From the IMG/VR virus record IMGVR_UViG_3300045988_154277: a stretch of DNA of 64,000 nt. One strand, given 5' to 3'. Shown piece by piece: positions 2,635 through 55,547 of this stretch. The notes beneath the pieces were generated by a model. That model was not told the DNA's origin. It worked only from the letters and a program-made list of their open reading frames with translations, and did not search any database. Numbering within the stretch: the first letter of the stretch is position 1; each line of letters opens with the position of its first letter. This DNA is from a virus. A program made the position numbers and the translations under genes.

Positions 2635-3663
2635 TCACCGTTTAACCTTATTGATCACAGCTCCTGTTCCCATGATGTCATTGGCGAACTGGAGGATCTT
2701 GCCTTTGGTGTTACGTAATTTGATCACATTCGACATCGTCGGGATTTTCGCCCCGGATGCCACTCTCAACAACTGGTAAACCCAGTATGGGGGATACTCC
2801 AACGCGATCGCCATCGTGATGCTGTCTGCTGCACTGGAGGAGAGGAACCGATAGAGCTGAGTTTTCGTCAGCTTCCGCATCCGGTGAGGACCTCTCTGTT
2901 GTAGAGCAGTGCAAATCACTTCTGGTGTCCAGAGTTTATTCGGATGATGGTTAAGATCTTCCACACTCTTGATCCTGGATTGAATATCGTTCATGGTTCC
3001 AAGGAACCCACAACGATTCAACAGAGCAGGATAGAGGTTGGGACCTTCTCCCCCGAGAAGCTGTGCATAATACGCAGCGAACAGAGTCTGAACGAACATC
3101 GATTCATTGTAGTCCAACCCATAGATACGACCCAACTCTACACCGATCGTCGTAGCATACGATTCGATCACGAACGATGCCAGTTTCGGGGAGAGCCAAG
3201 GGTCATGATCCTCATATCCAGTAACCAGTGCAGCACGCACAAACAGACTCGCCAACATGGTCGAATCTGTAATATTGTACTGGACATTGTATGGGTCTAC
3301 TTTTGTCGATATGGAGGTCAAGTTCACCCAACATTTCTGAAACCGTGCCGGTACAGAAAGGTTGCGAACCGACTTCCCGTCGACTACGATGTCTTGGATC
3401 GTTAAGACTTCAGGTATATCGTCCACTACCCCACTTAAGTTGTAGCAGAGGAAGCTTTGAAGCTTATCCGATTCAACAAGATCCTGATAGATCTTGGAGA
3501 TCGGAGTGCTAGAGAAGATCCGTGTCTGCGCAACGTGGGATAACTGATCGGGTGTCAGCACAGTGTCCGCTGTGTCCTTAATAAGAAACGCTACGGCTTG
3601 CTGTAACGGGACTTGCCCGATCCTATCTGCGACGATCGAGACGTCAAAAAGAGATAATTTCAT
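2635..3663 (-). CDS. Hypothetical protein (342 aa)
   Basis: Long minus ORF with unbiased composition, tightly coupled to the downstream gene. Confidence 0.6.
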   Translation of the reverse strand: MKLSLFDVSIVADRIGQVPLQQAVAFLIKDTADTVLTPDQLSHVAQTRIFSSTPISKIYQDLVESDKLQSFLCYNLSGVVDDIPEVLTIQDIVVDGKSVRNLSVPARFQKCWVNLTSISTKVDPYNVQYNITDSTMLASLFVRAALVTGYEDHDPWLSPKLASFVIESYATTIGVELGRIYGLDYNESMFVQTLFAAYYAQLLGGEGPNLYPALLNRCGFLGTMNDIQSRIKSVEDLNHHPNKLWTPEVICTALQQRGPHRMRKLTKTQLYRFLSSSAADSITMAIALEYPPYWVYQLLRVASGAKIPTMSNVIKLRNTKGKILQFANDIMGTGAVINKVKR

Positions 3664-3741
3664 ATCTTTAACCTCGTGTTGTCTAAGATGATTCTAAAGT
3701 CATAGGATCGTCGGCGACAACAAGTAACTGGAGAAATCTTT

Positions 3742-5868
3742 ATGGCGACGACTATTAAGCCATTCCCACATTATCAGATCAATGTGAAAGATAACTCCAT
3801 CTACAACGTGGAGTACACGACCATCCTCCCGGTGCATCGTCCGATCTGGATCATGCGCGCTCAGGAAGGACCGGTTGGGGATCCCGTGTGGTGTCCGACG
3901 TATACATTCGCTGCGGCTACTTTCGGTGAACAGACCTTCACCAATACCAATAAGAAGTACTACAGCAAACAGGCGAAAGTCCTGGTGGATACGCTGACCT
4001 ACAACGGTGCCTTCATCTGTCGTGCCGCCGATGAAACTGCTCTAAACTCAGTGGTGATCATCGAAGCTTGGGTTCGTCAGGTGAATGGAACCGAAGAAGA
4101 CGGAATCCTCCAGTACCTTTACGATGATGATGGACATCGACAAGTCGATGATGATGGCAACTACAAGCCGAAGAAAGACGGTGCTGGCAACAATGTGTAT
4201 GAACCTGGTCTCGAGATCAAGTACACACAGCGTTCCGCTCTGCTCTCTTCGGAAGAAGTTAGCGGTTTCGACTTCAGCTCTCTGCAGATGCGTCCAGAGG
4301 AGGATGGCGGCAAGAACTGGTCGGTTTACCCGATCATGGTCTTCGAAGCCCTCTATCCCGGCGAATACGGCAACGACCTCTGCTTCTCCCTGTTCTACAA
4401 GAACTCTGAGAACCTGGCTGGAGATGTCAACTTCTACAAGACGTTGTTCTACACTTTCGCTCCGGCTCGGAGAGATTACAACAGCACCACGGTTACTCCT
4501 CATTACGACATCTATAACACCACTCAGAACAGCTTCGCTGCGAACCCAGAGACGCTGAACCCCGATACTGGTGCTGAGATGTCGATGCAGGCGGTGTGCA
4601 ATAAAGCCTACGATGAAGATACGCATCAGCTTCCGTACACCATCTACACCTATGAAGAGAACCTGAACAAGATCGGTAACCTTATCGCTCAGTTTGAAAC
4701 GGAAGGGTCTCTTGGACTTACCAAACCTGATAATGTTTCGAATAGCGCTTTCGGCTACATGGTCAATGTGATCTCCTGCCGCAACCTCGGTGGAACGCCG
4801 TATGATCACGTCCGTCTGATCACCATCGACGAGACCGATGAAACTGTCGTTCAGCTTGCTGAAGACAGCTACATCTACCTGGCTGGTGGTTACGATGGCA
4901 GCGACATCGGCGATGAGATGGTTCAGAAGTGCATCCAGCAGTTCTGTGCTAAAAAACTCAATCCGAAGATCGTGGACAAGTTCCGCTATCCATTCACTCA
5001 CATGTACGATGTGGGTTACAACTTCGACACCAAGTACGCGATGCTCGATTTCCTCGATGTTCGCGACGACGTGATGATCGAACTGAGCACCCAGGTGCTC
5101 ATGGCGGATGGTACAGGTCGTACGATCCAGATGAACGACCAGATGACCGATGAGTCCAACGGCGAAGCTCTGCGTAGCCGTGCTCTGCTCATGCGGGAAT
5201 CGGTTCTCAAAGGCACCGACTGCTGCCGTTGTGCGATCTATGCGCATACCGGGTTCCTTGCGGATGGTGTCTACAGTGAACCCATGCCGTTCACTTACTG
5301 GAGTGCGATGAAGCACGCTATGTATGGCAACCTGCCGTATATGAACACGACCGAACCACGTGGTTGGCCTCAGAGCTACAACGAGTACTTCAAAGTCTCG
5401 TCTGTCAACTGGATCAACTACGATCCGGAAGGTCAGTCTCGTGTTTGGGACACTGGTATCAACTATGTCCAGTGGGCAGACATGTCTCGCATCTTCTATC
5501 CTGCTCTTCGCACCGTGTACCGTGCGGAAACCTCGGTGCTCGTCGATCAGTGGTTCGTCGATGCGGTGGTCTACACCAAGCATGTGGTTCGTAAAGCCTG
5601 GGGTAAGTTCAGCGGACGCAACGACAAAGTTGCTGTGCTGCAGCAAGGGATCAAGGAGTACCTTGATACCGAGCTCTCTTACCTGTACAACGGCAAGTAC
5701 GATTTCGAAGTCTCGGTCTATCAGACCGCCGAAGAACAGCGTATCGGATATATCCAGCACGTCCTGATCCGACTCACCAGTCCTGCCACCATGCGTGTGC
5801 TCGACGTTGATATCGAGGTCAACCGTGAAGGTTACAATCCGGAAGAAACAACTGCTGAAGCAGCGTAA
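3742..5868 (+). CDS. Structural protein, possibly contractile tail sheath (708 aa)
   Basis: 708-aa ORF with RBS GGAG 8 nt upstream of ATG. It is followed 10 nt later by a 342-aa ORF (sheath-then-tube arrangement). Size is similar to the phiKZ sheath at about 695 aa. Function inferred only from size and synteny. Confidence 0.35.
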   Translation: MATTIKPFPHYQINVKDNSIYNVEYTTILPVHRPIWIMRAQEGPVGDPVWCPTYTFAAATFGEQTFTNTNKKYYSKQAKVLVDTLTYNGAFICRAADETALNSVVIIEAWVRQVNGTEEDGILQYLYDDDGHRQVDDDGNYKPKKDGAGNNVYEPGLEIKYTQRSALLSSEEVSGFDFSSLQMRPEEDGGKNWSVYPIMVFEALYPGEYGNDLCFSLFYKNSENLAGDVNFYKTLFYTFAPARRDYNSTTVTPHYDIYNTTQNSFAANPETLNPDTGAEMSMQAVCNKAYDEDTHQLPYTIYTYEENLNKIGNLIAQFETEGSLGLTKPDNVSNSAFGYMVNVISCRNLGGTPYDHVRLITIDETDETVVQLAEDSYIYLAGGYDGSDIGDEMVQKCIQQFCAKKLNPKIVDKFRYPFTHMYDVGYNFDTKYAMLDFLDVRDDVMIELSTQVLMADGTGRTIQMNDQMTDESNGEALRSRALLMRESVLKGTDCCRCAIYAHTGFLADGVYSEPMPFTYWSAMKHAMYGNLPYMNTTEPRGWPQSYNEYFKVSSVNWINYDPEGQSRVWDTGINYVQWADMSRIFYPALRTVYRAETSVLVDQWFVDAVVYTKHVVRKAWGKFSGRNDKVAVLQQGIKEYLDTELSYLYNGKYDFEVSVYQTAEEQRIGYIQHVLIRLTSPATMRVLDVDIEVNREGYNPEETTAEAA

Positions 5869-7919: not shown

Positions 7920-10796
7920 TTAGAATGATGGTGGCGGTGGTGTTTCGTCGAAGTTCATGTCCTGAGGTTCTTGTGGTGTACCACCTTCCTCCGGAGCACT
8001 ACCTTGTCCTCCTCCACCTTGATCCACTTGGTCGAATGCCTGATCCAAGTCAGATGCTTGTTCCTCAGGATTCATAGTTCCACCTTCTTCTGGAGCTCCA
8101 CCCGTGGGTTGTTCTCCACCGAACTCATCGGTAGTTCCTCCCATATCGGATCCTCCACCCATATCACCGTACGGGTTATCACCTTGTTCTTCCAGGTGTT
8201 TCCTGGCTTCATCTACGACATATTTCTTGAAGTTATCGAACTTAAGCTTCTGGTTCGTAACGTAGTCGTAGAGATCGAATGCGTTCTTGATGTTGATATC
8301 CTTCGGGAATGGGATATCGAACGAACTCTGGAATCCAACTTGCTTGATGTAATCACGAATCATATCCGATTTAACGGTTTCTCGGAAGAGGGTGAACATC
8401 TCTTTCGCATCCTGATCCATGATCTGATTTTCATTGAAGATCATCTGCAGAACACGATCGATCGCATCCGCATACGAAGTGATCTCTTCGTACTGGGCTT
8501 TGTCGACCACGATCTGAGGAGCAGGCAAGGAAATCTTGATGTTCTTGATCACCGTCTGAAGTTGTTTCTTGATGGAGTCTTTGTTCAGCTCCACTTCCTG
8601 CTTCGACTTCGGAGGTTTCGGATCGGATCCTTCTGCTTCATTGGAAGCTTTCATATCCTTACGGCTCTTGGAAGAGGTCTTCAGGATCTCTTCGATCCTC
8701 TTCTGCAGTGGGGAGGAGTACTTGAGATATGTACGGATCAGCTTGTTTCCGAACTTGGTCGTCGTCTTCTGTTCTCCCTTGATCTTGTTGTTGTACATCA
8801 AGTTCGTAGTAGCAACAGAACGAGAGTATTCCTGTTCCCCTGTTTGGTTAAGAGCAGCATGAGGAACTTCCAACCCGGTGATGATCCAGTTGCTCAGCTG
8901 TTCCAGGAACGCCGTATCAGGAGAGATCGCATTCGCAGATTTCCTATCGGTTGTGATGTTGAGGTTCTCACGAAGTCCTTTCATGTTCTTCGGGAGCAAC
9001 GTAAGTGATCTCTGGAGGAGATCTCGTTGTACCGTCAACGGTTCGTTATCGAACCGCAACATCTTCTTCTCGATGAACGCATCTCGCACCATAGCGAGAT
9101 ACTGTGTGACGTTGGCGTTCTTCTCATCCACATCCACTTCGATGACTTTGTTGTCGATCGCATTCTCTGTGGCAGCCATGATACCGGAGATCAGAAGAAC
9201 CGTTCTCAAGGAGAGAAGTGTACTCAGATCCTCGATACGCGATTTACCAGTTCCATCGATGTGGTAATCATAAGCCATGTACACCATCATGGAAGCTGGG
9301 ACGAATACCAACCCTACTCTCTTACGATCCAAGAGATAACGGAAAAGACAGAGTGTCGTCGCTTCATGCTCTTCGATCGTAGCCCCTGAGAAACCATATT
9401 CTTCCAGTTTGTTGTTGAGCAGGTTCCTCATCGTAAGACCGAACATCATGGCAGTCGCTTTGAAGCGTTGATCGTCGTTGATGCCAGCTGCATATTTGTA
9501 CGCTGCTGGTTGACCGAATGTCGCCTGCATCGCACCTTCTGTCAACTTACGAGGACCGTTGTAGGTAGAACGATCGTAGACATGATCGGTCAATGGAGTA
9601 CCCCACTGGTTCACCAGAATGAAGTAACCGATGTGCTTATCGGGTGCACCAGGGATCGTCACTGGGATCACAGAGGAGTAAGGAAGATCAATCACGGTTG
9701 GATGGTGTTTCTCTTCCAAAGACTCTTCTGTATCGAGAAGATAAGTTGGATTAGCAGCATCCATCAAGAAATGTTCCAGAACTTTCTTCTCCATGTTCTT
9801 CGCAGCACCGTCGTAACGACTCTTCGTATTCAACTTCGTCGCATCGTACGTGATCACAACGGACTTCTTCGCTTCGGAGAACAGCTCCTTGATCGCTTTC
9901 TTGGTCTCTCTTGTGGTTGCAACTACCTCTGGATCTGTGAAGACCTCGTAAGACTTATCACTCAGTCTCCAATTTTCGAACATCTGATCGATATCTGCAT
10001 CGATCTTGTTGAGAAGATCATCATAGTGCTGTTTCTTACGACCCTCTGTTGGACGGATCGTTGGAATAAGCAACTCCATAGATGCGTCTTTGGCGTCGTA
10101 CATCATCGGTGGATCGTTATCATATTCCAGACGTTCACTTCCCATCGTGAAGTTGCCAGGGATCATCTGTTGATTCATCTGAGGATGATTGACATTCTTG
10201 ATGATCTCTTTGACATCGTGACCTGCTTTGATCTCATCGATATCCACCGCCGCATTCAGTGTATCGATATTCACCTGAGGTACTATGAGGATCGGAGAAG
10301 CGCCATCTTGGAAGATGGCTTTCTTCATCCAAGTCTTCATACGAGGAGCCAACTCAAACGTACCGTTGAAGAACTCAGTCAACTCAGAGGAGATCTTATC
10401 TTCGATATCCTGACCGAGATCGGTCTTCTCCAATAAGATCTGAATGCTGTTCGTCTGAAGATCGGTGGGACTGATCACAGAACTCACCCAGATATCGGCA
10501 GCGTCTTTCAGCTCAGGAGCCAACACCCCGAAACTTTGAGCAGTCCGAGACCAATTACCAGCCTGCTGAGAGATACCCAACAGCTGGTCAAGGAATTCAG
10601 AAGTGGAAGGAAGTTGTTCCGTATGGGAACCGTCGGGTGAGTAGATACCAGGAAGGTACCGCATCTCGGTTGGGGTATGAAGAGAGAGTTCGACATCCTG
10701 ATGTTGATCCTGTTCCGGGTTGTCTTCCGGGAACGAAACACCGAGGATTTTGCCTAACCTCTTCAGCCCTCTTGTAAAACTATTGTCTGTAGGCAT
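7920..10796 (-). CDS. Large hypothetical protein (958 aa) with C-terminal acidic Gly-rich low-complexity tail
   Basis: Continuous ORF. The last ~80 aa are GGSDMGGTTDEFGGEQPTGGAPEEGG...PPPPSF. No recognisable catalytic motif. Confidence 0.6.
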   Translation of the reverse strand: MPTDNSFTRGLKRLGKILGVSFPEDNPEQDQHQDVELSLHTPTEMRYLPGIYSPDGSHTEQLPSTSEFLDQLLGISQQAGNWSRTAQSFGVLAPELKDAADIWVSSVISPTDLQTNSIQILLEKTDLGQDIEDKISSELTEFFNGTFELAPRMKTWMKKAIFQDGASPILIVPQVNIDTLNAAVDIDEIKAGHDVKEIIKNVNHPQMNQQMIPGNFTMGSERLEYDNDPPMMYDAKDASMELLIPTIRPTEGRKKQHYDDLLNKIDADIDQMFENWRLSDKSYEVFTDPEVVATTRETKKAIKELFSEAKKSVVITYDATKLNTKSRYDGAAKNMEKKVLEHFLMDAANPTYLLDTEESLEEKHHPTVIDLPYSSVIPVTIPGAPDKHIGYFILVNQWGTPLTDHVYDRSTYNGPRKLTEGAMQATFGQPAAYKYAAGINDDQRFKATAMMFGLTMRNLLNNKLEEYGFSGATIEEHEATTLCLFRYLLDRKRVGLVFVPASMMVYMAYDYHIDGTGKSRIEDLSTLLSLRTVLLISGIMAATENAIDNKVIEVDVDEKNANVTQYLAMVRDAFIEKKMLRFDNEPLTVQRDLLQRSLTLLPKNMKGLRENLNITTDRKSANAISPDTAFLEQLSNWIITGLEVPHAALNQTGEQEYSRSVATTNLMYNNKIKGEQKTTTKFGNKLIRTYLKYSSPLQKRIEEILKTSSKSRKDMKASNEAEGSDPKPPKSKQEVELNKDSIKKQLQTVIKNIKISLPAPQIVVDKAQYEEITSYADAIDRVLQMIFNENQIMDQDAKEMFTLFRETVKSDMIRDYIKQVGFQSSFDIPFPKDINIKNAFDLYDYVTNQKLKFDNFKKYVVDEARKHLEEQGDNPYGDMGGGSDMGGTTDEFGGEQPTGGAPEEGGTMNPEEQASDLDQAFDQVDQGGGGQGSAPEEGGTPQEPQDMNFDETPPPPSF

Positions 10797-15395: not shown

Positions 15396-15478
15396 GTTGG
15401 ACCTCCTTTCTCCACCGTTACCTTAGGTGGTGTTGTGTTTAGTGGTTAAGTTGTGATCCTCTGTCAGGTACTCATTAA

Positions 15479-15499
15479 GTAATATATACGTGAAAAACG
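15479..15499 (-). promoter_or_regulatory. Early-type promoter P2 (core TATATATTAC)
   Basis: Sits in a ~55-nt cassette identical to the one at 29850 (ctgtcaggtactcattaagtaatatatacgtgaaaaacgatgaactacactg). Confidence 0.6.
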
Positions 15500-15504
15500 A
15501 TGAA

Positions 15505-15541
15505 CTACACTGAGGGTGCTGACTACGCACCCTCAGTGTAG
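15505..15541 (-). terminator. Terminator hairpin (ctacactgagggtgc...gcaccctcagtgtag)
   Basis: 15-bp stem after stop 15615. The minus-strand tail UUCAUCGUUUUUCACG runs into the promoter. Confidence 0.6.
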
Positions 15542-15614
15542 TTGTGTTATTATACAAAAAAGATAGTGATAACAGAGATGTCCGGACATCTCTGTTATCA
15601 CTTAGTGTGTAAGG

Positions 15615-29478: not shown

Positions 29479-29849
29479 TTTCTTTTCCTTTTTAGTTATT
29501 GATTATACATGTTGTGAGTACCTGCAGAGTTACATATCCGGACTAGACGTTAGTAATCAACGCCTTTGGAAGGTTGTCCCAAGTGCTTTGGGGCATTCCA
29601 AACTCCTGAACAAAGAACTGCTCAGTGCGTTTGAGATCTCTCCCAAGAAGCAAGTAGACGCTCCGCATATGGACGACTGCAGGATGCAATCCCCATTTCG
29701 AATTAGCCATTGCCATTCGACACCACCGTCCTTTCTGATCTCTTCTTTGAACTACGTGATCAACGTAGGTTCTTGCGATGCTGGTTACATCGCAAGGGTC
29801 GTGGATGAAGTTGTGTAGGAACGATATGTCTCTGTCAGGTACTCATTAA

Positions 29850-29870
29850 GTAATATATACGTGAAAAACG
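29850..29870 (-). promoter_or_regulatory. Early-type promoter P4 (core TATATATTAC), in a duplicated 55-nt cassette
   Basis: Identical to the P2 cassette. Confidence 0.6.
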
Positions 29871-29875
29871 ATGAA

Positions 29876-29910
29876 CTACACTGGGTAGGATCATCTCCTA
29901 CCCAGTGTAG
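29876..29910 (-). terminator. Terminator hairpin (ctacactgggtagga...tcctacccagtgtag)
   Basis: 15-bp stem after stop 29917. Confidence 0.6.
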
Positions 29911-29916
29911 TTGTTA

Positions 29917-32250: not shown

Positions 32251-33450
32251 TTAGCCCTTTATATTTTCAATCGCTTTTTCATATGCAGCTAGCTTGACTT
32301 TCAAGCTATCATTCTCTGCGATGAGTTGTTTCATCTCGGTATTGAAGAGTTTGTCGATCAACAGCTCACCAGGTGTATCGTCGATCACTTCCTGTCTGGC
32401 TTGGTTGATACTGTTGTACTCTTCTGTGGTAAGATAGATATCATCGTAGCGGTTGATCTTAACCAGTTCCTTATCCGCTGGGAACTGCTTCCCATCCGCT
32501 TTGATGCCGTATCTCACTTCCAAGAGTTCGGTGAGAAGCATGATCATATCCGTGACCATCTCCAGATCAGAGAAGACTCCAAGATTGATACCTAAGATCA
32601 GTTTGTCATATCGTGCGATGGATCCATCCGGAACTCCATCGACAAAAGACAAAGGTATGTAGATCACGATATCTTCATTCCGTGGATCAACCAACTTGTA
32701 GAACATCGTGTTCTGGAAAGAAGGTTCGTCCTTGTTGTAGACATCCTTAGCAACTCCGATCGGGGCGTACAGATTGTTGTACACGTCGATACCAGACGAC
32801 AACACATCTTTGTAAGAGAGGATCTTATCAACTCGATATACCCCACAGTACACATCGTGATATGGACTGTCTGGATCTCGAGAGTAACCCAACTTCTCAA
32901 AGTCTTTTACGAAGGTGAACCGATAGATCTTCCCAAGGATCAGATTGACTGTATCGTAACGTTGTGTCGTCAACGTGTTGTAGTTGGTCTTGGTCACCGT
33001 CCGGTTGGTCTCAGAGAACCGATAATTCGTGAATGCATTGTAGTACATCACGGACTGCGTTGTGATCAGATCACCTGTCACAGGATCGGTAGATGTGACG
33101 GGTTCACCGACGGTGATCTGGATGTTCGGATCATCGAACGCTGCAAGAGTTGGAGCATTATCCTCTCCGATATCACCTTTCTCCGTATCAACAGCATAGG
33201 TGACATTCCAAGGATCGGTAACTTCTGTTGTCGGTTGATATTCCGAGTAGTAGATTTTGAGACGATCGTACGAAGCGATCACCCATCCTCTACCACTCAA
33301 GTAATATACAACGACCCGTTGATCGAGCTTATCAGCGATACCACTCCACTCTCGGGCATTCCCAGATGTGGAAGGATCAACAACGGTGAGGTTTTGATTG
33401 ACAACAGCGGTTCCGGCTCCTGTAATACGGATACCTCTCTGTTCCATCAA
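32251..33450 (-). CDS. Structural hypothetical protein (399 aa)
   Basis: Tightly coupled within the block. Confidence 0.5.
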   Translation of the reverse strand: MMEQRGIRITGAGTAVVNQNLTVVDPSTSGNAREWSGIADKLDQRVVVYYLSGRGWVIASYDRLKIYYSEYQPTTEVTDPWNVTYAVDTEKGDIGEDNAPTLAAFDDPNIQITVGEPVTSTDPVTGDLITTQSVMYYNAFTNYRFSETNRTVTKTNYNTLTTQRYDTVNLILGKIYRFTFVKDFEKLGYSRDPDSPYHDVYCGVYRVDKILSYKDVLSSGIDVYNNLYAPIGVAKDVYNKDEPSFQNTMFYKLVDPRNEDIVIYIPLSFVDGVPDGSIARYDKLILGINLGVFSDLEMVTDMIMLLTELLEVRYGIKADGKQFPADKELVKINRYDDIYLTTEEYNSINQARQEVIDDTPGELLIDKLFNTEMKQLIAENDSLKVKLAAYEKAIENIKG

Positions 33451-50547: not shown

Positions 50548-51741
50548 TTAGTGGTTGATATCGAATGTACCGCGTTTACCTTCACGGTCGTTACCAGTTG
50601 CTCGTAATTGATTGATAATAGCTCGTAAGCGAGAAGCTGCTTGTTCTACACTCCCAAACACCTTCTCCATATCAGTTGAGATTCTCGTGAGACATGTGTG
50701 TATGCTTCTAACAGTCTCTAACATCGCTTGACATGCAGCTGCAAAATTACGCAAATACGTCTTAAAATCAGTTTGTTCCGTTTGCGTTTGTAAACTCTGA
50801 ATGTGTTCGAGTACACGTATATTCACGAGCGACTTACCACTCAATCGTTTGGCAGCAGTTGACAGAGTACGAGTCACAGATGTTATTCGAGCTTCGAGAT
50901 CATGATAATCGTTAACAACCCGATCTACAGAACGAGCTGTATCCCAACCGCTATCAATCGGACCACGCTCCAACCGATTCTCATTCAACTCTGTTATCGC
51001 ATTGTGTAACGTGGTTAAATCGTCTCCTAGTCTATCGACAATCGTTTGTAACTCATCAGTCTTTTTAGTTACATCACAAGAATAAACACCATTCATGATG
51101 TTATCGACCTCTACAGAGGTAAACGCGTTTGCTTGATCTAAACTACGACTTACATCACGTTCGATCGTACGCATGATGTCTCGAATGCACGATAATCTGC
51201 TTTGCAGTGCTGAAAATATAACGTGACTCTTAGGGTTAATTTCACCCTTAGTGTTATACACATCATCACTATCATCAATTTTCATCGCCTGAGTAAACAC
51301 GGGTGGGATAGATATTGGATTCACAGCTTCCTGGCTTATCGTGAAGTTATTCATGTATTTGTCATAAATCTCACGATGCTCCATGATGAACGCTCTGTTT
51401 TCATCCAACTTATCGGTTCTCTTCTTAGAGAACCACTTCTTGATATGTTCAGAGATCCAATCACAGATCTTCTTAAAATATTCACCCAGCTTACGGATGA
51501 ACTTCACAACAAGATCCCAAGCACTCTCCAACAACCCTTCATATGAAGGTGTGATGTTAGCATTTACAAGCGCATCCGTCACTTGTTGGATAAGCAGTGC
51601 TTCTCCAGCTCCAGATGGTTGTAGAGGATGTTCATATACAGGTACTAACTCTACAACATTATTCAAGGCCATCGCAAGCATATAACACTCATGCTGAGCC
51701 TGGTACAACTCAGATATCATCAAATCGTAATCCATATCCAT
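50548..51741 (-). CDS. Alpha-helical hypothetical protein (about 397 aa, start MDMDYDLM)
   Basis: RBS AAGGAG before the ATG at 51741. Confidence 0.5.
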   Translation of the reverse strand: MDMDYDLMISELYQAQHECYMLAMALNNVVELVPVYEHPLQPSGAGEALLIQQVTDALVNANITPSYEGLLESAWDLVVKFIRKLGEYFKKICDWISEHIKKWFSKKRTDKLDENRAFIMEHREIYDKYMNNFTISQEAVNPISIPPVFTQAMKIDDSDDVYNTKGEINPKSHVIFSALQSRLSCIRDIMRTIERDVSRSLDQANAFTSVEVDNIMNGVYSCDVTKKTDELQTIVDRLGDDLTTLHNAITELNENRLERGPIDSGWDTARSVDRVVNDYHDLEARITSVTRTLSTAAKRLSGKSLVNIRVLEHIQSLQTQTEQTDFKTYLRNFAAACQAMLETVRSIHTCLTRISTDMEKVFGSVEQAASRLRAIINQLRATGNDREGKRGTFDINH

Positions 51742-51817
51742 AACGTTCTCCTTATATAGGTCATAGCATGAGACTAAGAATGTGTCTCTCGGAGAAAGAA
51801 AAAGAAGCAAAAAGAAA

Positions 51818-51843
51818 GAGAGTAGAGTGTGATCTCTACTCTC
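51818..51843 (-). terminator. Terminator hairpin (gagagtagag...ctctactctc) with a long U-rich tail
   Basis: 10-bp stem. Confidence 0.55.
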
Positions 51844-51846
51844 TTC

Positions 51847-52191
51847 TCTATACTCTAAATAATATGGTTATCTAACCCCCTAAGAACCCCCGGGTAGGGG
51901 TTGGGGCGTAGCCCTACATTTATGATGCTAAGGATGGAGGGTAGGGGAGATCTGATCATACACTGGATCTATCTCTAACCAATTCAAGATATCTATATCT
52001 TCGATTGATTAGAGGATAGATCTGACAGGCTTACGCTGGTGGATCTCCCCTACCCATCTCTGGATAGATACTCTTATGGTATTCCCGTTCGCTTCACGTA
52101 CGTTACGCTCACTCAAATAATATAGTTGTAGCAATATTTAATTACAGAGTAAAAAGTTACATCGTTATAGGTTAATCATATCTAACAAAAG
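51847..52191. other. About 345-bp non-coding, highly structured element: 14-bp outer inverted repeat (gggtaggggagatc/gatctcccctaccc) enclosing a 13-bp inner inverted repeat, with G-rich palindromes at its 5-prime side
   Basis: No ORF on either strand. Terminators flank it on both sides. Confidence 0.5.
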
Positions 52192-52193
52192 AA

Positions 52194-52226
52194 GAAGAGT
52201 AGAGAGGGTGGATCTCTCTACTCTTC
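52194..52226 (-). terminator. Terminator hairpin followed by UUCUUCUUUUGUU
   Basis: 12-bp stem gaagagtagaga/tctctactcttc. Confidence 0.6.
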
Positions 52227-52261
52227 CATGTAAGATCTTCTACGTTGATAGAGTTATCTGA

Positions 52262-52951
52262 TTAGATATCTCTCATACGTCTTACGACGTCATACAGTTG
52301 GTTGTTGTATTCAGCTAACCTTCTGGTGTAGGTTCTCATCTGTTCAGGGAGGTTAGGAACCTCCCTCTGGATCAGACGGATCGTCGTCTCCATGTTGAGA
52401 TGGGTATCGCTTAATTCAGCAGTCAATGACTTGTACTTATCGATCGTAGACTGCATCTCTGCATAAGCCTTCTTGGAAGACTCGATACCACTCTCCGTGA
52501 CTGCTTTCTGGTTCATCAGATAGAGTAGATATCCACGATAATCTTCGATCGTACAGTCTATACATCCTGCACAAGTCAGCTGACAGGATACCACTACAGG
52601 TGTATGACCTTGATGCTTATATACTTTGGTCTGTACATGGATATCGTAGACGTTCTCGATATCCACGATCGACATCAGGTGTACAGTCACCAGGAAGTCA
52701 TTCTCCACTTTGGATTTATAGAGCATCCCTTCGTGACGGACATACCCATCACTGAATACTTGTTGAGTCGTATGAGTTAACACCTCCAGGTAACTCCCAT
52801 CGTTCTTGGGATAGCCTTCTGGGAAGACTACACGTTTGTGGTCCTCATCCCACTTTAATAGATCGATCTTGTCTTCTGGGAAGACATACGTAGTATCCAT
52901 CAGGTGTTGAACTTTGTTCAACATCGATGTGATCAGTTCGTTCTGTTCCAT
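52262..52951 (-). CDS. Hypothetical protein (229 aa)
   Basis: ORF; RBS GAAGGAG. Confidence 0.5.
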   Translation of the reverse strand: MEQNELITSMLNKVQHLMDTTYVFPEDKIDLLKWDEDHKRVVFPEGYPKNDGSYLEVLTHTTQQVFSDGYVRHEGMLYKSKVENDFLVTVHLMSIVDIENVYDIHVQTKVYKHQGHTPVVVSCQLTCAGCIDCTIEDYRGYLLYLMNQKAVTESGIESSKKAYAEMQSTIDKYKSLTAELSDTHLNMETTIRLIQREVPNLPEQMRTYTRRLAEYNNQLYDVVRRMRDI

Positions 52952-54728: not shown

Positions 54729-54894
54729 AGAGCTCACCTCCTTCTACCACAAACAGGGAACTGTCTTTGTGGTGTGACAGGTTGGAGCATGTCTGTAATA
54801 CACCTCCTATCACTTAAATTCAAAAGAGTGATGGGTTGTAGATGTGCGAAAATCACCAACCAGATCAGTCATCGGTGATTTGTGTCACGTACGA

Positions 54895-55068
54895 TCATTG
54901 AGCGATAGCAACACTCGATGCTTTTGACGTGAGTTTTGCATCAATAACACGTGTTTGCTTAAGAGCATTGCGCTCCCAGCGTTGACGATCACGTGCTTCT
55001 TGTTCAGCAACACACTTGTATCCGGCATTCGGATCTAAGATGCGTTTGAAGAACTCATCTGAGGTCAT
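54895..55068 (-). CDS. Small protein (57 aa, MTSDEFFKRILDPNAGYKCVAEQ...)
   Basis: Manual translation. RBS TAGGAGGTGATGTCAT. Confidence 0.45.
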   Translation of the reverse strand: MTSDEFFKRILDPNAGYKCVAEQEARDRQRWERNALKQTRVIDAKLTSKASSVAIAQ

Positions 55069-55547
55069 ATGACATCACCTCCTAACTACTGTAGATTAAA
55101 CAGTCTTGCAGTAGGACTGGTTATAAGAGTCAGTAACAGAACCTCTCTCCTTCAGGTGAGGGATGTATGTTACTACGAACTATTCTTCCGTTGGACGTTA
55201 GTCCATCGTGATGTAATAGAAGGACAGTATGCTAAGAACATATGGTTAAAATGTTCTTGTTGCCTGGAACAGGCCATCGACGTAAGTCGGTGTACTCGGT
55301 AACACGAGGAAGCTCCTTCCTTCAGGTAGGAGTAGTTCACGTTCAGATCTGTAGTCACCTACCATCCATCACTCGTCTTATCGAAAAAGAGACAGCTAAG
55401 GGATGAAGGATACAACTCCTTCATCCCTTAGCTAATCGTGTATTCGAAGTATAACTCTACACACGTTGGATATAGTAAGAACAACACTTCACAGTTGTCG
55501 AAACAACATCGACCAGATCAGTCATCGATGTTGAATTGTACTCACAT

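Follow-up and report, generated by a model that had tools for sequence, protein, structure and literature searches.

A candidate structured non-coding RNA gene between two terminator-like hairpins of a phiKZ-like jumbo phage

What does a phage keep between two genes when the sequence there encodes no protein? The question is raised by about 345 bp at positions 51847-52191 of a 64,000-nucleotide (nt) stretch of viral DNA, IMG/VR record IMGVR_UViG_3300045988_154277, the whole of which we call the window. An initial annotation described this element as highly structured, free of open reading frames (ORFs) and bracketed by two terminators, and proposed that it could be a non-coding RNA (ncRNA), a replication or packaging origin, or a protein-binding site. 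The evidence presented here favours the first option, lends weak support to an origin and none to a packaging site; protein binding is compatible with an ncRNA and is not an alternative to it. We put at roughly 0.55 the probability that the element, taken as a whole, is a stand-alone gene for a structured ncRNA, and consider it likely that the locus specifies a transcribed, structured RNA under selection. An ncRNA is favoured because a promoter variant and a terminator lie on the gene strand, because the element is conserved above the level of the genes, because six compensatory changes were found, and because some G-U pairs can form only in RNA of the minus strand. Most likely, this RNA belongs to no catalogued family and is kept by a group of human-gut jumbo phages.

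A putative transcription unit on the minus strand

The window is part of a phiKZ-like jumbo phage: protein scans found split genes for the beta and beta' subunits of RNA polymerase, a phiKZ-type internal head protein, a tail sheath and a topoisomerase. The element, the two hairpins that bracket it (T1 and T2) and the neighbouring genes all lie on the minus strand, where the order is gene A, T1, an AT-rich spacer, a promoter-like block, about 305 nt of structured sequence, T2, a pyrimidine tail, a TGCTATG motif, a ribosome-binding site (RBS) and gene B (Table 1). The bracketing terminators were borne out at the level of sequence. Both hairpins resemble intrinsic terminators on the minus strand only (52227..52193 and 51846..51815), with predicted stems of 14 and 13 pairs and at least five T within 8 nt 3' of the stem. 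The loop of T2 varies among relatives (AUC-A, CUUAA or CUCAA). The transcribed strand would be the minus one, a point that the initial annotation had missed.

Two types of promoter-like motif recur in the window. The TGCTATG type, gcaTGCTATGc (or TGGTATG/TCCTATG), is found 25-45 nt before the RBS of several genes, with sites at 51768, 34962, 27668 and 28553 on the minus strand and at 10796 and 57689 on the plus strand. We take it to recall the late TATG motif of phiKZ. The other type, cgTTTTTCACGTA-TATATTAC-TTAATGAG, occurs on the minus strand at 29857, 15486, 7834, 20579, 56492 and 41457, with a variant at 33308; members of the TTTTTCACGTA-TATATTAC-TTAATGAG motif family often lie directly 3' of a terminator hairpin, and the AT-rich early-promoter type of phiKZ resembles the TATATTAC class (PMC8244752). 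The promoter-like sequence of the element, CTACAAC-TATATTAT-TTGAGTGAG, reads as a weaker version of the TATATTAC type, and TATATTAT-TTGAGTG is a close match to the class.

From these motifs, transcription would start near 52113, and the ncRNA would comprise about 305 nt (up to about 325 nt with its tail), running on the minus strand from about 52113 to the U-run 3' of T2 at about 51808. The element looks like its own transcription unit and not like an obligatory leader of gene B, since gene B has its own TGCTATG or TGGTATG motif between T2 and the RBS, which is kept in all relatives. In the model that we propose, a weak TATATTAC-type promoter, a variant of the class found in this phage, would drive the ncRNA and, by analogy with phiKZ, a phage-encoded RNA polymerase would read that promoter. 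T1 would insulate the unit from gene A, and T2 would end it before the TGCTATG promoter of gene B.

The description of the element as ORF-free holds: it contains only ORFs of 34-41 amino acids (aa), and none is kept in the relatives described below (contigs and loci are numbered from L001). The 41-aa ORF, which opens with TTG at the putative transcription start, has no RBS and is frameshifted or stopped in L003, L004, L011 and L014; in the L008 clade the ATG of the 34-aa ORF is gone. With no conserved ORF preceded by an RBS, the element is, judged from its sequence, not a small protein gene.

Known RNAs were sought in several ways. A search of the 64-kb window against Rfam at the gathering score returned no match, a permissive search of 51700-52300 (E up to 10) returned chance miRNA and snoRNA matches only, and ARAGORN placed no tRNA or tmRNA at the element. 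An RNA of the retron, diversity-generating retroelement or TnpB type was rejected: there is no reverse transcriptase or nuclease among the scanned proteins, and no second copy that could form a template/variable-repeat pair. A likeness to ribosomal RNA was also considered. The segments TGGGTAGGGGAG-(10 nt)-GTAAGCCTGT, at nt 58-89 of the element (window 52025-52056, minus strand), are colinear with E. coli 23S rRNA 1184-1211, where the spacer is 6 nt, and 1/1000 shuffles matched this colinearity. It is probably a coincidence, because the most distant relative, L014, keeps the pairing and not the rRNA identity: it alters exactly those bases and compensates on the opposite strand.

Folding and conservation among relatives

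The repeats and palindromes reported in the initial annotation, like the bracketing hairpins, were all found in place and are non-random. The outer inverted repeat is formed by GGGTAGGGGAGATC (51939-51952) and GATCTCCCCTACCC (52042-52055), complementary at 14/14 positions with 89 nt between the arms; by a rough estimate, about 0.03 perfect 14-bp repeats within 120 nt are expected per 64-kb window. The two G-rich palindromes were confirmed at 51877-51917. The inner repeat is present as 13 bp with one bulged base, but its supposed AT-rich centre is no loop: pairing runs on to a 4-nt apical loop. The element folds far more stably than dinucleotide shuffles (minus strand, z = -8.2; plus strand, z = -6.1), and over several folds of the element z ranged from -6.8 to -8.2. 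The statement that nothing comparable occurs in the window stands insofar as there is no second copy; it fails for folding strength, which is equalled in other intergenic stretches (29479-29916, z = -9.6; 15396-15614, z = -8.6). The one of these stretches that was inspected, 29479-29916, is made up of a terminator hairpin together with a promoter and an ORF of 57 aa.

Structure was tested on ten distinct sequences, with shuffles and slid partners as controls. In predicted folds the central domain is a three-way junction with 13 unpaired nt on its 3' side. In its alignment 98% of the cells are paired, and double changes occur at four pairs, against 0.7 in shuffles (0/500) and none in the slid controls. 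The 5' hairpin P1 has two further pairs with double compensatory changes in L014. Altogether six pairs change on both sides, with 98-99% of cells paired versus 30-58% with slid partners, and no such pair appears in the slid controls. Loops vary while stems hold: the tetraloop of P1 is freely variable (GUAC, GCAU, GGAA, GGAU or GUUA), and its 3x3 internal loop GUA/GAA, of a kind able to form tandem sheared G.A pairs, is conserved. Retention of structure in related phages, a check proposed in the initial annotation, is seen in L014 as helices kept through six compensatory double changes, which is the pattern expected of a structured RNA under selection.

Two helices speak for RNA in the minus sense, whereas the core GGGC hairpin gains a G.U pair on the plus strand. 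The AU-rich hairpin has 97% of its cells paired; at three pairs the only changes are switches between A-U and G-U, workable in minus-sense RNA alone. The segment GAAGCGAA near the 5' end (52095..52088) can pair with UUUGCUUC just 3' of T2 in every sequence (10/10), including one constant G.U pair and one C-to-U change that keeps a U.G pair; both again work only in minus-sense RNA. This helix and P1 are mutually exclusive, and therefore there may be two conformations, or a transcript that extends through T2. In the 3' domain, GGGCUNNGCCCCANNCCCUACC and the two G-runs that follow it show, T2 aside, the highest conservation when L014 is compared with the other sequences. Both G-runs change length in step, from 5/5 to 6/6 in two separate clades; no single pairing scheme for them or for a 3' pseudoknot emerged from ten distinct sequences.

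The relatives were reached through homologues of gene B (45-97% aa identity) on gut-metagenome contigs, and a scan with T2 added more. All contigs with a gene B homologue have a gap of at least about 520 nt 5' of this gene, and the same block occupies it in L001, L003-L011, L014, L023, L025 and L026. Lack of conservation in relatives had been named in advance as an argument against the element; the block is kept in at least nine of them, and it can be aligned from CTGTAATT... to ...CTTTCTC in nine distinct genomes. The element and flanks of the window are identical to those of a 279-kb human-gut contig (L005, ENA NODE_36_length_279029), and the IMG/VR contig UViG_3300045988_142450 (L001) is a close relative of the window. 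L001 carries the gene B protein of the window and yet shows 14 differences in 561 nt around the element. Other searches were negative: pattern scans of IMG/VR for extra copies recovered the source contig alone, no further relatives were gained from protein-profile scans of IMG/VR and GTDB, GenBank phages searched by DNA and by flanking proteins yielded no relative of the window, and plasmids and E. coli genomes searched by DNA had no match to the element. Four other pattern matches (L017-L020) are regarded as chance because nhmmer does not recover them.

Among the closer relatives the element is more conserved than the neighbouring genes. Its nucleotide identity to the window is 86-97%, compared with 79-86% for the topoisomerase gene, 72-79% for the lysozyme gene and about 74% for a 144-aa gene; the C-terminal two-thirds of gene B are barely alignable as DNA, and the gene B protein is 45-53% identical among the relatives compared. 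In L014 the relation is reversed. There the element falls below the protein genes in identity (76.6% for the element region, a stretch that includes part of gene B, versus 78.9% for topoisomerase; 35-84% identity per block), with the helices retained. This pattern suits a structure-constrained RNA better than recently transferred DNA. The best-conserved 40-nt blocks in L014 are the one with the T2 terminator (97%) and the one in the 3' domain from the GGGC core through the G-runs (84%).

In L012 and L013 a different AT-rich sequence of about 350 nt replaces the element, and everything from TTATTTGAG onward is kept, including T2 and its tail. The replacement (3434-3886) has its own inverted repeats GATACTCTCTATC...GATAGAGAGTATC and TATAAT-like motifs, is accompanied by an extra 170-aa gene, and may be an alternative cassette. 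The T2 stem with the 24-nt pyrimidine tail (51792-51846) is identical in all relatives, L012 and L014 included, and is conserved far above nearby coding sequence; ordinary terminator function does not explain this invariance.

Table 1. Features of the element and its flanks, in minus-strand order (window coordinates).
Feature	Coordinates	Strand	Remarks
Gene A	52951..52262	minus	ends at T1
T1, terminator-like hairpin	52227..52193	minus	14-bp stem, 7-nt loop, then UCUUUUG; ends gene A
AT-rich spacer	52192..52128	minus	65 nt, 75% A+T; variable among relatives until about 52147
Conserved promoter-like block CTGTAATTAAATATTGCTACAACTATATTATTTGAG	52147..52112	minus	nearly invariant in 9 relatives
TATATTAT inside promoter-like block	52124..52117	minus	resembles the phage's own TATATTAC promoter class
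P1, 5' hairpin GCGUAAC-GUAC-GUGAAGC	52108..52091	minus	conserved 3x3 internal loop GUA/GAA
Central domain	52055..51939	minus	117 nt; 14-bp outer stem, side hairpin, long inner hairpin
Side hairpin	52038..52026	minus	GUAA loop; in central domain
Long inner hairpin	52022..51966	minus	in central domain
3'-domain core GGGCUACGCCCCAACCCCUACC	51914..51893	minus	4-bp GGGC/GCCC hairpin, then CCCUACC
Two G-runs CGGGGG-UUCUUA-GGGGGUU	51892..51874	minus	read from alignment
AU-rich hairpin UAGAUAA-CCAUA-UUAUUUA	51873..51853	minus	overlaps AACCAUAUUAUUUAGAG, a partial second copy of the promoter-region motif
T2, terminator-like hairpin	51846..51816	minus	12-13-bp stem, invariant in every relative, including those without the rest of the element
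Pyrimidine tail UCUUUUUGCUUCUUUUUCUUUCUC	51815..51792	minus	invariant; contains UUUGCUUC
TGCTATG, promoter-like, of gene B	51768..51762	minus	3' of T2; outside the RNA
Gene B	51741..50548	minus	RBS and TGCTATG motif 5' of the ORF

A related bacterial repeat, rival explanations and known systems

The core of the 3' domain has counterparts in bacteria. GTDB genomes were searched with the 22-mer GGGCTNNGCCCCANNCCCTACC (18 specified bases), which corresponds to 51914..51893 of the minus strand, and at least 120 loci matched (L028-L147). Among the matches listed, most lie in metagenome-assembled genomes (MAGs) of gut or rumen Clostridia, in many copies and on several contigs per MAG; a few lie in bins of Bacteroidales, Myxococcota, Magnetococcales and Chlamydiota, and some in high-GC actinomycetes are coding and probably due to chance. 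The sequence TGGGGCTTYGCCCCAMACCCTACCA is common to 91 of the 119 scorable loci among those listed, and 66 of these 91 have a second hairpin of 19-21 nt that begins with the CC of TACC. The repeat is built from the head TGGGGCTTYGCCCCAMACCCTACCA and one or more variable hairpins, each followed by ACYCY. In one Ruminococcus MAG the unit measures about 135-210 nt and has no ORF. Copies stand in tandem (L103, L146, L033) and in inverted pairs (L047), and no gene shared among the loci was found. The repeat family is widespread and, with no match in Rfam or in the literature searched, apparently undescribed. We take the module shared with the phage to be real; it could be a common site for a host factor, a captured host-type repeat, or a convergence of GC-rich hairpins.

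It is tempting to speculate on function from this similarity. The ncRNA might act in trans as a protein-binding scaffold or decoy, with its hairpin and CCCUACC module titrating or recruiting a host factor that recognises Clostridia-type repeats. A decoy or other protein-binding role is weakly favoured because the core 22 nt also head the dispersed Clostridia repeat, and a trans-acting mechanism centred on this module is tentative. Doubtful is the more specific idea that the RNA is a molecular mimic of the repeat head which captures a host factor acting on the repeats, and so represents a new class of phage ncRNA. If true, the mimic would be the first clue to the role of the bacterial repeat family.

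Several observations weigh against an ncRNA gene. Its putative promoter and RNA ends were placed by motif, and the promoter-like motif is not recognisable in L014. All six compensatory changes stem from that one lineage and lead from one Watson-Crick pair to another, so that a DNA hairpin or cruciform fits them equally. The fifth pair of the core hairpin is A.C in the minus sense and G.U in the plus sense. T2 and its tail stay invariant in L012 and L013 despite the replacement of the element, so part of the conservation belongs to something else. Finally, the similarity between phage and bacterial repeat spans only about 30 nt, and the second hairpin of the repeat is absent in the phage.

The order of promoter, structured RNA, strong terminator and gene could also describe a cis-acting leader of gene B, whether an attenuator, a riboswitch or a put/EAR-like antitermination element, that controls the stop at T2 and provides a second, earlier expression of gene B. 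The element always lies directly 5' of gene B, also in L014, which lacks gene A; it offers exclusive pairings, P1 against GAAGCGAA/UUUGCUUC and GGGUAGGGG with either of two copies of CCCCUACCC; and small RNAs (sRNAs) made from 5' untranslated regions by premature termination are known in phiKZ and 201phi2-1 (PMC11512511). A leader is nevertheless unlikely, given that gene B has its own conserved promoter-like motif in every relative, that T2, the tail and gene B are kept without the element in L012/L013, and that the anti-T2-stem sequence needed by an antiterminator is not seen in the element. Acting as DNA, the locus could be a replication origin, possibly primed by a transcript, or some other protein-binding or cruciform site. 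For this speak the 75% AT stretch adjoining GC-rich palindromes, the compensatory changes, which suit DNA hairpins as well, and a minimum of the cumulative GC skew at about 53.1 kb, within about 1 kb of the element, where gene orientation does not change. The layout of promoter and structure recalls transcription-activated origins, which exist in phages such as T4 and T7. We regard a DNA element as rather improbable: the skew minimum is broad and shallow and was read from 64 kb of a genome of about 200-280 kb, direct repeats occur only in pairs and there are no iterons, the AT-rich part is the least conserved part, and the helices that depend on G.U favour RNA. A cluster of GATC sites, considered as a Dam/SeqA or pac-like signal, was dismissed because the excess of GATC, 3.7-fold, extends over the window as a whole.

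The element might instead be a relic with no dedicated function, a REP/BIME-like repeat or an expanded terminator hairpin lodged between two terminators. Taken on the plus strand, the core is GGTAGGGGTT-GGGGC-GTA-GCCCT, a GTAG beside a palindrome as in REP sequences (PMC3733652). In addition, GGGTAGGGG occurs twice in direct and once in inverted orientation, the outer stem is like ordinary terminator stems of the phage (for example GGGTAGGAGAT..ATCCTACCC at about 29900), which also use GGGTAGG/CCTACCC-like sequences, and the same core is found in the tandem and inverted copies of the bacterial repeat. Such a relic seems very unlikely to us, as the phage has a single copy of the sequence, CCCTACC shows no enrichment across the window (10 observed, about 8 expected), and no transposase, of the RAYT (IS200/IS605) type in particular, was found among the roughly 30 window proteins scanned. 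Moreover, the element has persisted at one site through the divergence to L014 with compensatory changes, and it exceeds its neighbouring genes in conservation among closer relatives.

For an ncRNA gene, the nearest known systems are the promoter-plus-terminator sRNAs of phiKZ and 201phi2-1: sRNA005 of 201phi2-1, an sRNA upstream of gp182 in phiKZ, and intergenic sRNAs detected by ONT-cappable-seq (PMC11512511). Like the element, these are short non-coding units of phiKZ-like phages in which a phage promoter is closely followed by a terminator, precede a gene of the late or structural type, and are kept in related phages. They differ in having been filtered to less than 250 nt and seen as transcripts, whereas the element, at about 305 nt, is predicted from sequence and was compared with them by description. 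6S RNA, a hairpin with a central bubble that sequesters RNA polymerase, comes to mind as well. The element shares with it an imperfect hairpin of more than 100 nt with an asymmetric internal region of about 19 x 13 nt between long helices, and silencing the RNA polymerase of the host would fit a phage equipped with polymerases of its own. There is, however, no Rfam match to 6S RNA even at E = 10, and the 5' side of the supposed bubble forms a conserved small hairpin, hence the three-way junction. A three-way junction in a phage-encoded, promoter-driven, structured RNA is also found in phi29 pRNA and others of its kind; the element differs from pRNA in phage type, has no Rfam match and shows no link to packaging genes. 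The likeness to 6S RNA or phi29 pRNA is only architectural.

REP/BIME elements are GTAG-tagged extragenic palindromes with a unit of 20-40 nt that ends in GTAG (PMC3733652); they are present at high copy number, in direct and inverted orientation. The element shares short GC-rich palindromes beside GTAG (on the plus strand) in direct and inverted copies, and the bacterial repeat with the same core stands between genes in multiple copies, either in tandem or as inverted pairs. By contrast, the phage sequence occupies a single locus, both in the window and in every relative, is about 300 nt long and has its own predicted promoter and terminator. In the REP-like plus-strand sequences GGTAGGGGTT-GGGGCGTAGCCCT and GGTAGGGGAGATC..., GTAG is separated from the stem, by 5-6 nt from the hairpin, and does not stand at the stem end. 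The opposite strand of the bacterial repeat, GGTAGGG-TTT-GGGGC-AAA-GCCCC, likewise combines GTAG with a palindrome, with GTAG not at the stem end.

Nucleus-forming jumbo phages are intensively studied; to our knowledge, their ncRNAs have barely been charted, and we know of none with a known function. The candidate ncRNA described here has considerable length and a clear structure, is better conserved than the genes beside it and is confined to uncultured relatives of phiKZ from the human gut; it offers a concrete target for metatranscriptome mapping and a covariance-model search. Were it only a terminator-rich spacer, the finding would be an ordinary one. The link to the bacterial repeat may be of value by itself and may hint at the host range of the phage.

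Neighbouring genes and further observations

Apart from coiled-coil noise, Pfam, PHROG and PADLOC gave no assignment for gene A, gene B, the 144-aa gene or the 170-aa gene specific to L012. In the gene B protein the first 130 or so residues are nearly invariant among homologues, and the remainder is about 40-50% identical. The protein is all-helical, and its AlphaFold model (pLDDT 64) had no significant fold match in PDB or BFVD. Upstream, the stem of T1 diverges among relatives. The T1 loop (52207-52213) reads ATCCACC in the window and L006 and GGTGTAT, a near reverse complement, in L001 and L003-L005; the loop thus appears flipped between the window and the latter group.

At the scale of the window, GATC occurs 913 times where base composition predicts 246. 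This 3.7-fold excess is unusual in phage DNA and may reflect a constraint on the whole genome, related to methylation or of another kind. The skew turns from negative to slightly positive near 53.1 kb, with the genes staying on the minus strand. Another stretch, 54810-55123, lies among small ORFs of 46-65 aa and is unusually conserved in distant relatives (95% identity to L012 and 84% to L008, above the neighbouring lysozyme gene); it may encode small conserved proteins or be another non-coding element.

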